The notes under the pieces were generated by a model. That model worked only from the letters and a program-made list of their open reading frames with translations, searched no databases and had not been told where the DNA came from. From contig CAZHIA010000006.1 of NCBI GenBank assembly GCA_964532425.1, positions 65,343-129,342 of the forward strand: a stretch of 64,000 nt of DNA. The letters are read 5' to 3'. Made by a program: the position numbers and the translations under genes. This DNA is from an uncultured Candidatus Saccharibacteria bacterium (GTDB lineage: Bacteria > Patescibacteriota > Doudnabacteria > UBA920). Below are positions 55,576 through 60,648 of this stretch, one piece after another (the first letter of the stretch is position 1; each line of letters opens with the position of its first letter).

Positions 55576-55650
55576 TTTATTAAAAACAGCCAAATGGCTG
55601 TTTTTATTTTTATATTTATGGTATAATCGTCTGTGTGCAAGTAAACTGGA

Positions 55651-56322
55651 TTGTTAGTTTATATGCTCAATAATTCAACTAAGAAACAAGCGTTAAATCT
55701 TAGACTAAAAGGGTTTTCGTATGCTTTTATAGCAAAGAAATTGTCTATCTCAAAAAGTACAAGTTACCTTTGGCTAAAAAATATTGCATTAAGCAAAAAC
55801 GCAAGCCAGAGATTACTTTTGGCACAATTATACGGTCAGAAAAAAGGTTTAAAGAAAATAGAGGACGCTAGAACGCATGTTGAATCTGAAATAAAACAGA
55901 GAGTTGGTGATACCTTAAAGCAAATACATATGAGCAAGGAGAACCAAAAGCTCTTATGTTCAATTCTTTATTGGAGCGAGGGGGAAAAATCTAAAAGGGT
56001 TGTCGCTTTTACTAACTCCGACCCGCTTATGATAAGGTTATTTATTAAATTGTTTGTTGGTTCATTTGGAGTCAGTAAATTAAAAATTAAAGCATTTTTA
56101 CATTTACATGATTACCACAATGTAGATAGACAGGTTATATTTTGGTCCAAGCAAACCGGTATTCACAAAAATAGGATTACAGTATATAATAAACAGAGCC
56201 AACATACTTATAAAAAGCCTAATTACCCAGGCTGCATTTCTATCAGATATTATGATGCAAAAATAGCAAAAGAAATATTTTTTCTTTATAGCAATTTTGC
56301 ACAAAATATGGGGGCTTGGTGA
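55651..56322 (+). CDS. AT-rich hypothetical protein with N-terminal helix-turn-helix
   Basis: HTH-like LKGFSYAFIAKKLSISKSTSYLWL. TATAAT at 55623 upstream. The 3' end overlaps tRNA-Trp by 13 nt. Lys-rich, about 30 % GC. Confidence 0.5.
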   Translation: MLVYMLNNSTKKQALNLRLKGFSYAFIAKKLSISKSTSYLWLKNIALSKNASQRLLLAQLYGQKKGLKKIEDARTHVESEIKQRVGDTLKQIHMSKENQKLLCSILYWSEGEKSKRVVAFTNSDPLMIRLFIKLFVGSFGVSKLKIKAFLHLHDYHNVDRQVIFWSKQTGIHKNRITVYNKQSQHTYKKPNYPGCISIRYYDAKIAKEIFFLYSNFAQNMGAW

Positions 56323-56383
56323 AATGGTATCACAGCGCTCTCCAAAAGCGTTGTTGTGGGTTCGATTCCTACAGCCCCTGCCA
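56310..56383 (+). tRNA. tRNA-Trp (anticodon CCA), CCA encoded
   Basis: Hand-folded: acceptor GGGGGCT/AGCCCCT, D-stem GTGA/TCAC, anticodon arm GCGCT-CTCCAAA-AGCGT, T-arm GTGGG-TTCGATT-CCTAC, discriminator G. Confidence 0.85.
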
Positions 56384-56430
56384 AAAAAGCTTCTCTTTGA
56401 TAATAGAAGCTTTTTTGTTATAGTACCAGC

Positions 56431-57075
56431 ATGAAAAAACTCATACCCGCTATCGCAATCAACGAATTGATTCTAACTAAAAATCCCGTCATTACAGTTG
56501 AAAAGGAAAAGGTAGACGGCAACGTTACTTTAAAAGAATTGGATATCATAAACAAACTTATAAAATATTATAACCCAAAAACTATTTTTGAAATTGGGAC
56601 ATTCGATGGTAGAACAACATTAAACATGGCACTCAACTCAAATGCGAAGACTAAACTTTTTACCTTGGATCTACCTGAAACGGAAATTGGCAAAACTAAA
56701 TTCAAGCTTTATACAGGATCAAAATTTAGCGATATAAATTATGTGAATAAAAATGAATCAGGAAAAAGATTTAAAGGCACAGAAGCGGATAAAAAGATTA
56801 CGCAATTATTTGGAGACTCAGCCACATTCAAATTTTCTCCATACTACAAAAAGATCGATTTCATATTTATTGATGGTTCACACGCTAAAAAATATACTCA
56901 AAATGATACTGAGAAAGCAATCAAGCTTTGCAGATCAACAAAATCTATTATCCTCTGGCACGACTACGGGGTATGGGATGGAGTAACCGAGGCACTCAAT
57001 GAACTTTACACTAATGACAAGCGTTTCAAAAATTTGAAACATATACTAGGAACATGCTTGGTGATTAGAGATTAA
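56431..57075 (+). CDS. class I SAM-dependent (O-)methyltransferase
   Basis: Motif I IFEIGTFDGRTT, an acidic post-I residue, and a motif resembling FIFIDGSH as in family-3 OMTs. AT-rich. Confidence 0.65.
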   Translation: MKKLIPAIAINELILTKNPVITVEKEKVDGNVTLKELDIINKLIKYYNPKTIFEIGTFDGRTTLNMALNSNAKTKLFTLDLPETEIGKTKFKLYTGSKFSDINYVNKNESGKRFKGTEADKKITQLFGDSATFKFSPYYKKIDFIFIDGSHAKKYTQNDTEKAIKLCRSTKSIILWHDYGVWDGVTEALNELYTNDKRFKNLKHILGTCLVIRD

Positions 57076-57106
57076 GGTTTGAACCTTACCCCCTATCCCC
57101 TGCCAA

Positions 57107-60083: not shown

Positions 60084-60105
60084 CACTGTCAGCCTAAAAC
60101 ATACA

Positions 60106-60163
60106 AGCCCACACTCGGCTCCGGAACTCAGGTTCCGGACTCGATGTGTGGGTCTTTTTTTGT
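60106..60163 (+). terminator. compound-hairpin intrinsic terminator
   Basis: AGCCCACAC...GTGTGGGT outer stem with an inner CTCCGGAAC-tcag-GTTCCGGAG, then a T-run. Confidence 0.75.
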
Positions 60164-60259
60164 AAAAGCAGTTTTACATCATGCAGGAAAAATTATGATC
60201 GGGAGAGGAATAAGAAAACCGCCCTCGCCTTGCGGCAAGTGCGGCTTAAAGCCAACGGA

Positions 60260-60562
60260 TTATGGAACGTGCAGTCCCACTTGTTGTTCCCAGACTACCT
60301 CCGGAAGGTTTTCTGGGTTAGCAAGCGCTACAATGAGTGCAATCAGCCCGGCTTGCGGCGGATAATCGCTGACGCACAGCACACTGGTCCCATCGGGTTT
60401 ATCGATGATCTGGGCTGCATAGCCAGCGTTGAGTAAGGCCTCCCATGTTTCGGGCAGGCTGTACTCTTCCTCGCGCATGATACGGGCTATCTCAGGGCCA
60501 GTTCTGCCGCCCTGAGCGAGCTGAGTTACTCGGAGGGAAACCGGTAAAGGTTGGTGTTCCAT
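60260..60562 (-). CDS. hypothetical protein (GC-rich)
   Basis: ORF only. Confidence 0.4.
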   Translation of the reverse strand: MEHQPLPVSLRVTQLAQGGRTGPEIARIMREEEYSLPETWEALLNAGYAAQIIDKPDGTSVLCVSDYPPQAGLIALIVALANPENLPEVVWEQQVGLHVP

Positions 60563-60648
60563 ACTCCTCCTTCGGAGTTTGCGGAATCGGATTGTTCCTT
60601 GGGTATATTTTGTTGTCTGGCTCCAATAATGTCAAGGTGGTTGCCGGC

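Follow-up and report, generated by a model that had tools for sequence, protein, structure and literature searches.

A probably selfish gene that ends inside tRNA-Trp: evidence for a family of probable homing-endonuclease-like genes set against single tRNA genes

What kind of gene takes its stop codon from a neighboring tRNA gene? The question is raised by a 64,000-nucleotide (nt) stretch of DNA from an uncultured patescibacterium (assembly GCA_964532425.1, contig CAZHIA010000006.1, positions 65,343 to 129,342), which we call the window. Here an open reading frame (ORF) of 219 amino acids (aa) with an N-terminal helix-turn-helix (HTH) lies between rpmG and tRNA-Trp and runs into the tRNA gene. 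Comparison with its homologues places the ORF in a large family that has not been described before. Its members are probably selfish genes of a homing-endonuclease-like kind, and every branch directly adjoins one particular tRNA gene. In window coordinates, the junction is laid out as follows.

55216-55291, plus strand: tRNA-Thr(tgt), which opens the conserved tRNA-Thr-rpmG-tRNA-Trp module (ARAGORN; Rfam tRNA, 67.3 bits).
55420-55575, plus strand: rpmG, ribosomal protein L33, 51 aa (Pfam Ribosomal_L33, E 3.5e-16).
55581-55606, plus strand: terminator-like hairpin 3' of rpmG, an 11-bp stem and then a T run (terminator scan; also inverted repeat I2).
55663-56322, plus strand: the 219-aa HTH ORF with its conserved C-terminal domain, ATG at 55663 (Pfam: N-terminal HTH_23 only).
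56162-56190, plus strand: promoter-like site TTCACA-17-TATAAT, matching 11 of 12 consensus positions, inside the 3' part of the ORF and about 120 nt 5' of tRNA-Trp (consensus scan only).
56310-56383, plus strand: tRNA-Trp(cca), intact, with CCA encoded (ARAGORN; Rfam, 61.7 bits).

The original prediction had pointed out an AT-rich HTH ORF in this position with a 13-nt overlap; the guanine-plus-cytosine (GC) content of the ORF is 0.32, and the overlap is exactly 13 nt. The last four codons of the ORF, with G-A-W, and its stop are drawn from bases 1-13 of tRNA-Trp; the ORF brings no stop codon itself but takes it from the tRNA 5' end. The same arrangement was found in homologues at this tRNA. 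All 14 ORFs of the Trp clade abut tRNA-Trp and 11 of them terminate inside it; a comparison of the junctions gave a C-terminus F-A-x-x-Y-G-G-V-V-stop encoded by tRNA bases 1 to about 15, with TAA, TGA or TAG within the D-arm region serving as the stop. The tRNA-Trp gene itself is uninterrupted, and family ORFs lie outside the mature tRNA save for an overlap of 2-25 nt. Since the stop of the gene lies inside the tRNA, RNase P processing of a co-transcript would strip the mRNA of its stop codon. The promoter-like site at 56162-56190 may, judging from its consensus match, act as a replacement promoter that keeps tRNA-Trp expressed. We also considered co-transfer of tRNA-Trp with the ORF, but each of two tRNA-Trp sequence types is found both with and without the ORF, which makes the comparison uninformative.

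The family to which the ORF belongs is large. Forty-eight homologues, each about 220 aa long, came from a protein search; the nearest of them are 50-53% identical to the window copy, and the few that carry organism names are Patescibacteria. A profile search covering 1.84 billion cluster representatives (clusters at 50% identity) gave 6,959, 3,775 and 724 clusters at E values of at most 1e-3, 1e-10 and 1e-30, respectively. Pfam, NCBIfam and PHROGs matched the family at the N-terminal HTH only, and its members are annotated at source as 'hypothetical', 'transcriptional regulator' or 'transposase'. A literature search of limited coverage found no description of this family.

Proximity to tRNA genes holds across the family. 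We assembled an adjacency sample of 74 loci, 72 from species-representative genomes (found with a profile of 10 closer sequences) and two from contig look-ups, and in 62 of the 74 the ORF starts or ends within 70 nt of a tRNA on the same strand. The hosts belong to five phyla (Patescibacteria, Actinomycetota, Chloroflexota, Armatimonadota and Omnitrophota), and three of them are cultured: Streptomyces silvisoli RB6PN23, Streptantibioticus ferralitis JCM 14344 and Phytoactinopolyspora limicola HAJB-30. In a neighbor-joining tree of 56 members, the grouping follows the identity of the tRNA across all five phyla. Clades that lie 5' of their tRNA are found at Trp, Gln(ttg), Gly(gcc), Gly(tcc), Ile(tat), Val(tac), Lys, Arg(tcg) and Glu(ctc), and other clades lie just 3' of Gly(tcc), Arg(cct) and Glu(ttc). 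Nine loci hold two paralogues apiece, each at a different tRNA, and a sizeable share of the tRNA genes in some Patescibacteria may be preceded by a family ORF. In 52 of 56 loci the AT content of the ORF exceeds that of its flanks, by a mean of 5.7 points, and the window ORF shows the largest AT excess among them (-17 points). As a side observation, the loci with two paralogues within a few kb include L014, L019, L028, L030, L035, L036, L047 and L054, and the tRNA pairs at such loci are Tyr+Trp, Lys+Gly, Gly+Gln, Ile+Gly, Val+Gly, Gly+Lys and Arg+Gly.

Family members are nearly all chromosomal, with one match among 2.9 million viral contigs. This member sits inside a phage tRNA array, 78 nt 3' of tRNA-Gly(tcc); its locus (L124:1749-6039, IMGVR_UViG_3300033562_000573) is on a 69-kb contig and has 15 tRNA genes within 4.3 kb.

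The history of the rpmG/tRNA-Trp junction was traced in relatives fetched by way of an L33 anchor, which gave 44 metagenome loci (the module is in L081-L115). L33 was 82-92% identical in 25 metagenome relatives. The tRNA-Thr-rpmG-tRNA-Trp module of the window is conserved, since rpmG and tRNA-Trp occur together in 29 of the anchored loci, as a rule after tRNA-Thr(tgt). In 18 of the 29 the site is empty and the gap between rpmG and tRNA-Trp is just 22-90 nt. Locus L111 holds an intact family member (gap 751 nt), L096 a frameshifted copy spread over two reading frames (gap 724 nt), where an assembly error might have produced the shift, and L084 a copy that lacks its 5' part and keeps the C-terminal half alone (gap 467 nt). 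These three occupants belong to different sub-clades, and the window copy is nearest to yet another group. In the gaps of the remaining loci (136-928 nt), family similarity was not detectable. An exact search with the window L33 for a near-identical genome with an empty site returned the same contig only. Vertical inheritance of the arrangement had been named as the outcome that would refute the original prediction; the relatives do not share the gene order of the window, and most have an empty junction. A homing endonuclease gene would be expected to leave just such a pattern, in which a precise site beside a conserved gene is invaded repeatedly and the copies decay and are lost.

We infer a site-specific DNA endonuclease of the homing type, together with its activity, target site and homing mechanism, from the behavior of the gene and not from the fold of the protein. 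In element-free genomes, the protein would recognize the tRNA-Trp gene at its 5' boundary. The cleaved empty allele would then be repaired from an occupied donor, which would copy the gene in, and flush insertion at base 1 of the tRNA would destroy the target site and so protect the carrier. The other branches would act likewise at tRNA-Gln, Gly, Ile, Val, Lys, Arg, Glu and Tyr genes.

The closest known parallel is in phage. The SegB gene of T4 stands free within a cluster of tRNA genes; the endonuclease that it encodes has the T-psi-C motif conserved in tRNA genes as part of its recognition site and promotes its own inheritance together with that of the tRNA genes nearby (PMC2330249). The family shares with SegB and the other free-standing homing endonuclease genes of T-even phages (PMC2330249; PMC2988022) the character of a stand-alone selfish gene among tRNA genes and the same presence/absence pattern, and its viral member likewise lies in a phage tRNA array. 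SegB, however, is a GIY-YIG enzyme of a phage, whereas the family is nearly all chromosomal, has neither GIY-YIG, HNH, PD-(D/E)XK nor a recognizable LAGLIDADG domain, is joined to the tRNA at base 1 and has split into separate clades, one for each tRNA species. Group I introns with homing endonucleases in bacterial tRNA genes (PMC13011429; PMC3984707) are also tRNA-linked mobile DNA enriched in Patescibacteria, and each endonuclease type is tied to one tRNA species; here, in contrast, there is no intron. LAGLIDADG endonucleases in rRNA insertions of the candidate phyla radiation (PMC11270868) target a highly conserved RNA gene in the same host phylum. The family gene differs in lying beside its target gene and not inside it, in its extra HTH and in lacking the first beta-hairpin in the model described below.

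An AlphaFold2 model of the 219-aa protein, built from 34 sequences, was confident, with a predicted local distance difference test score (pLDDT) of 94.6 and a predicted template modeling score of 0.78. The model consists of the HTH (residues 2-38), a long helix (45-86) and a C-terminal alpha/beta domain, which runs helix 92-106, strand 114-118, helix 121-135, strand 143-148, helix 154-165, strands 172-176 and 191-196, and helix 199-215. Residues W37, Y103, W104, E106, G107, K109, N118, S119, D/E120, P121, W161 and G190 are invariant or nearly so in all clades. The invariant motifs of the C-terminal domain are LYWxEGxK, which includes Y103, W104, E106, G107 and K109, and NSDP (118-121); the conserved E106, K109, N118 and D120 are candidate active-site residues. 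By eye, a modeled helix that ends in an acidic residue and glycine, followed by a strand and a helix capped by S-D-P, recalls a LAGLIDADG domain minus its first hairpin, and the LYWxEGxK helix, the strand and the NSDPxMIxxF helix look LAGLIDADG-like in sequence as well. Searches against BFVD gave a weak top match to a 'Homing endonuclease' of Bodo saltans virus (E 0.07, probability 0.99) and still weaker matches to LAGLIDADG, intein and homing-endonuclease entries at E 0.3-0.7.

Several results speak against the homing-type proposal. LAGLIDADG was found by Pfam in 0 of 34 family members, and a profile search of the PDB returned transposase and resolvase HTHs only. Alignment by hhalign with I-SceI and I-CreI (manually entered reference sequences) was negative. 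Foldseek found nothing significant in the PDB, the best hits being OmpA-like and IspF structures at E 7e-3 and a template modeling score of about 0.25. The predicted topology, alpha-beta-alpha-beta-alpha-beta-beta-alpha, departs from the canonical LAGLIDADG order alpha-beta-beta-alpha-beta-beta-alpha. Among the nuclease domains looked for in Pfam, NCBIfam and PHROGs (LAGLIDADG, GIY-YIG, HNH, His-Cys box, PD-(D/E)XK and EDxHD), none was matched. The upstream flanks, moreover, differ between lineages, and for that reason classical two-sided homing cannot explain the spread between distant hosts. Finally, multiple paralogues per genome and same-tRNA orthologues across phyla would also fit a cellular role tied to tRNA genes. 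An assignment to LAGLIDADG on the basis of the LYWxEGxK and FTNSDP motifs was therefore set aside after the Pfam, PDB profile, hhalign and Foldseek negatives and is a lead, not a result. A HUH/Rep-like nuclease, suggested by FTNSD and HLH motifs, was ruled out as well, the HLHxYH motif being conserved in the Trp clade only.

A bolder proposal is that the C-terminal domain could be a previously unrecognized site-specific DNA-cutting or DNA-joining enzyme, each branch of which has evolved to recognize one tRNA boundary and inserts there with single-nucleotide precision. We put this forward tentatively and would not call it probable. If true, it would offer a natural panel of long-target enzymes for many tRNA species in at least five phyla, often several per genome. 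Should the family consist of endonucleases, it would add a large unannotated class of selfish genes to bacterial chromosomes, would explain the variable flanks of tRNA genes in Patescibacteria and some actinomycetes, and would supply proteins whose long DNA targets, diversified by nature, lie in highly conserved genes. Beside tRNA genes, thousands of entries now annotated as 'hypothetical', 'transcriptional regulator' or 'transposase' could be unified. The homologues in cultured strains, among them tRNA-Gln(ttg)-associated ones of actinomycetes (L052, L061 and L062), make experiments on the family feasible.

The ORF could instead encode the site-specific transposase or recombinase of a minimal one-gene element that inserts at tRNA boundaries without a homologous donor allele. 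The HTH and long helix resemble the N-termini of IS3, IS630, IS21 and Sleeping Beauty transposases and of resolvases, the junction at tRNA base 1 is precise to the nucleotide despite unrelated upstream flanks, and there are multiple paralogues per genome. However, DDE, serine-recombinase and tyrosine-recombinase domains were not detected in Pfam or NCBIfam searches, and a repeat search around the ORF found no terminal inverted repeats. The copies at different tRNAs, furthermore, form deeply divergent clades and are not near-identical, which fits long-term fidelity to a target better than it fits active transposition. We consider this alternative unlikely and retain it because spread between lineages needs something beyond two-sided homologous repair.

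Less likely still is a domesticated, WhiA-like DNA-binding protein that serves the neighboring tRNA as a transcription factor or promoter carrier and owes its low GC to amino-acid composition. It is retained because of the multi-copy, tRNA-specific orthology of the family, with same-tRNA orthologues across phyla, and it gains from the strong promoter-like site within the ORF and from the lack of a recognized nuclease fold. WhiA, an HTH transcription factor derived from LAGLIDADG, also combines an HTH with a domain of possible homing-endonuclease ancestry. By description, however, WhiA carries a pair of degenerate LAGLIDADG domains ahead of its HTH and is a conserved, single-copy housekeeping gene, whereas in the family the HTH comes first, there is one small domain, and presence varies between relatives. 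A regulator is also hard to reconcile with a gene that is missing at the junction in most close relatives, that has left frameshifted and truncated copies, and whose occupied sites hold different sub-clades. The GC content at third codon positions (GC3) of the ORF is 0.30 against about 0.58 in host genes, an anomaly at the codon level and not an amino-acid effect, and the strictly conserved acidic and basic residues suggest catalysis.

The homing-type reading of the HTH ORF would account for the 5' side of tRNA-Trp; the 3' side holds further foreign-looking pieces, as follows.

56375-56417, plus strand: repeat copy 1, CCCCTGCCAAAAAAGC (the last bases of tRNA-Trp), then a terminator hairpin (repeat search D7 and I6; alignment).
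56431-57075, plus strand: class I S-adenosylmethionine-dependent methyltransferase, 214 aa (Pfam Methyltransf_24, 6.9e-12; Methyltransf_3, 7.2e-08).
57097-57140, plus strand: repeat copy 2, CCCCTGCCAAGAAAAGC, then a perfect 17-bp hairpin at 57105-57140; the methyltransferase insert has its right edge here (repeat search D7 and I3; alignment).
57150-57167, minus strand: isolated T-arm fragment GGTAGGTTCGATTCCTAC, 14 nt identical to the tRNA-Trp T-arm, inverted.
57420-60083, plus strand: MVP-like, SPFH-type protein, 887 aa (Pfam MVP_shoulder, 1.1e-19; Vault_3, 4.6e-08).
60260-60562, minus strand: 100-aa ORF, GC 0.56, convergent with the MVP-like gene and called as a gene in the Logan assembly.
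62494-62580, minus strand: tRNA-Tyr(gta) (ARAGORN, Rfam).

The methyltransferase gene after tRNA-Trp, predicted to be about as AT-rich as the HTH ORF, has a GC content of 0.33. It is bracketed by a 17-nt direct repeat of the tRNA-Trp 3' end and the start of the following hairpin (56375-56392 and 57097-57114), which the original prediction had overlooked. The repeat core, CCCCTGCCAA(G)AAAAGC at 56375 and 57097, encloses the methyltransferase alone, and this gene was absent from all relatives fetched. Chance repeats within these 9 kb are at least as long as the 17-nt repeat, which counts against reading it as the trace of an insertion; its weight lies in its position and in analogous duplications in relatives. 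In L106:1650-1730 a 41-nt direct duplication of the tRNA-Trp 3' end surrounds a 1.4-kb single-gene insert, in L089:4585-4690 the 36-nt 3' half of tRNA-Trp is duplicated around 42 nt, and in L113:5545-5640 a 19-nt duplication of the 3' end encloses about 180 nt. Because these three loci show direct 3'-end duplications around inserts, the tRNA-Trp 3' end is a recurrent insertion site in the lineage, and the methyltransferase is a small, 0.7-kb cargo there. In all three the duplication lies 3' of an intact tRNA and the distal copy bears the terminator typical of the lineage; the type of terminator found 3' of the window tRNA-Trp also follows tRNA-Trp in relatives. The methyltransferase cassette is a second kind of insertion, unrelated to the 5' HTH ORF element. 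With moderate confidence, we favor a tRNA-Trp flanked by two independent small insertions, a one-gene selfish element of the homing type on the 5' side and the methyltransferase cassette on the 3' side. A promoter-like site also lies 5' of the methyltransferase (56397-56424) and another 5' of the MVP-like gene (57249-57278), both from the consensus scan.

The first genes 3' of tRNA-Trp vary in every relative examined and encode GIY-YIG, DnaJ, Bax1-I, DUF3137, pilin-like (by eye) or unknown proteins. In L086:2638-2895 and L108:5834-6100 the first gene encodes a stand-alone GIY-YIG protein (85-88 aa; Pfam E 2e-13 and 9e-17), which may be another nuclease-type selfish gene at the same hot spot.

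An improbable alternative, close to what the original prediction had proposed, takes 55.6-60.6 kb as one tRNA-targeted island that was acquired stepwise by an integrase-type mechanism and displaced secE and nusG. The composition jumps are real, and the direct repeat around the methyltransferase, with the related duplications in relatives, would be at home in such an island. Like islands that tyrosine integrases place at tRNA 3' ends, the methyltransferase cassette has a direct repeat of the tRNA-Trp 3' end at either border, and so do the inserts of L089, L106 and L113. However, the ORFs tested from 50.8 to 64 kb showed neither an integrase or recombinase domain nor a remnant of one, and at 42 nt to 1.4 kb the inserts are tiny. 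The repeat spans 0.7 kb only and leaves the MVP-like gene outside. The HTH ORF, at the 5' end of the tRNA, lies outside any attachment (att) structure at the 3' end and has a family-wide explanation. Nor was a secE-nusG slot there to be filled: SecE and NusG were found in 0 of 10 ORFs scanned 3' of tRNA-Trp in six relatives, so their lack is a lineage trait and not a displacement. What stands of the stepwise acquisition is a mosaic of foreign-looking pieces centered on tRNA-Trp, with its 3' end as a recurrent insertion site; the HTH ORF itself is likely the mobile unit and not cargo.

The inverted T-arm fragment had been proposed as a remnant of tRNA-targeted integration. The fragment exists and consists of a T-arm alone: 14 nt copy the tRNA-Trp T-arm exactly (a DNA search gave 2 matches, with 0.02 expected by chance). 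It lies at 57150-57167, 7 nt from the 57143-57160 first given, but it is not an att duplication. As a decayed tRNA it matches no tRNA model, and as an att copy of tRNA-Tyr it fails by eye, its sequence differing from the tRNA-Tyr T-arm. A hairpin after the MVP-like stop (60129-60144) is 88% complementary over 16 nt to the T-arm/acceptor region of tRNA-Thr (55270-55285), so that the MVP-like gene is flanked on both sides by inverted tRNA-like snippets (57150-57167 and 60129-60144). Their arrangement may be due to chance, as there are 14 such inverted pairs in 9 kb.

The composition of the region was measured against the rest of the contig. Host genes have a GC content near 0.50, and 1.5-kb windows outside the region average 0.494 with a standard deviation of 0.024. 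The low-GC block (HTH ORF, tRNA-Trp and methyltransferase), whose left edge the hairpin at 55581-55606 marks, lies at z = -6.4 and the MVP-like gene at z = +4.4, and the two are the top tetranucleotide outliers across the whole 64 kb; the contig is therefore not uniformly heterogeneous, which had been the other outcome that would speak against acquisition. By about 60.1 kb the GC content is at background level again. The MVP-like gene, put near 60% by the original prediction, has a GC content of 0.59 (GC3 0.75). Two ORFs 3' of it had been called GC-rich too, which holds for one (0.56) and not for the other (0.49); the former, the 100-aa ORF at 60260-60562, has no match in Pfam or NCBIfam.

The MVP-like protein has 5,189 homologous clusters at E values of at most 1e-10, in many phyla. 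Its best match is 52% identical (Candidatus Uhrbacteria), and most others are 40-45% identical over their full length. Bacterial MVP homologues have already been described (bioRxiv 10.1101/872010; PMC3762200). They share MVP_shoulder and Vault_3 with the window protein and are about 820-850 aa long, compared with 887 aa here, and nothing is distinctive in the window gene but its high GC relative to the host contig. It is an ordinary member of the known bacterial MVP/SPFH homologues and was probably acquired. The case for acquisition, which the high GC suggests, is weak because a 219-aa ORF at 33538-34197 on the minus strand has a similar GC3 of 0.76; this ORF (GC 0.59, without a Pfam match) is the sole other window gene as GC-rich as the MVP-like gene.

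As to the host, the window GluRS is 66-69% identical to proteins labeled 'Patescibacteria group' or 'Candidatus Doudnabacteria', and the L33-anchored relatives carry the same tRNA module. The taxonomic call is based on few markers, and the contig also encodes large PAS-GAF-GGDEF-EAL and histidine-kinase signaling proteins (47217-50702, 43626-45401 and 22511-24184), which are unusual and not expected for Patescibacteria/Doudnabacteria.

A chimeric contig that joins organisms of different GC, an assembly or binning artefact to which extreme GC steps within 2 kb and a metagenome-assembled source might point, is very unlikely because contigs assembled independently from two sequencing runs are exact substrings of the window (55254-62492 and 55233-56786) and match over all junctions, and the rpmG-ORF-tRNA-Trp order recurs in unrelated assemblies. 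The independent 7.2-kb contig (L001) begins inside tRNA-Thr and ends 2 nt before tRNA-Tyr; its assembly was thus interrupted at tRNA genes, where repeats or strain variation are the probable cause.

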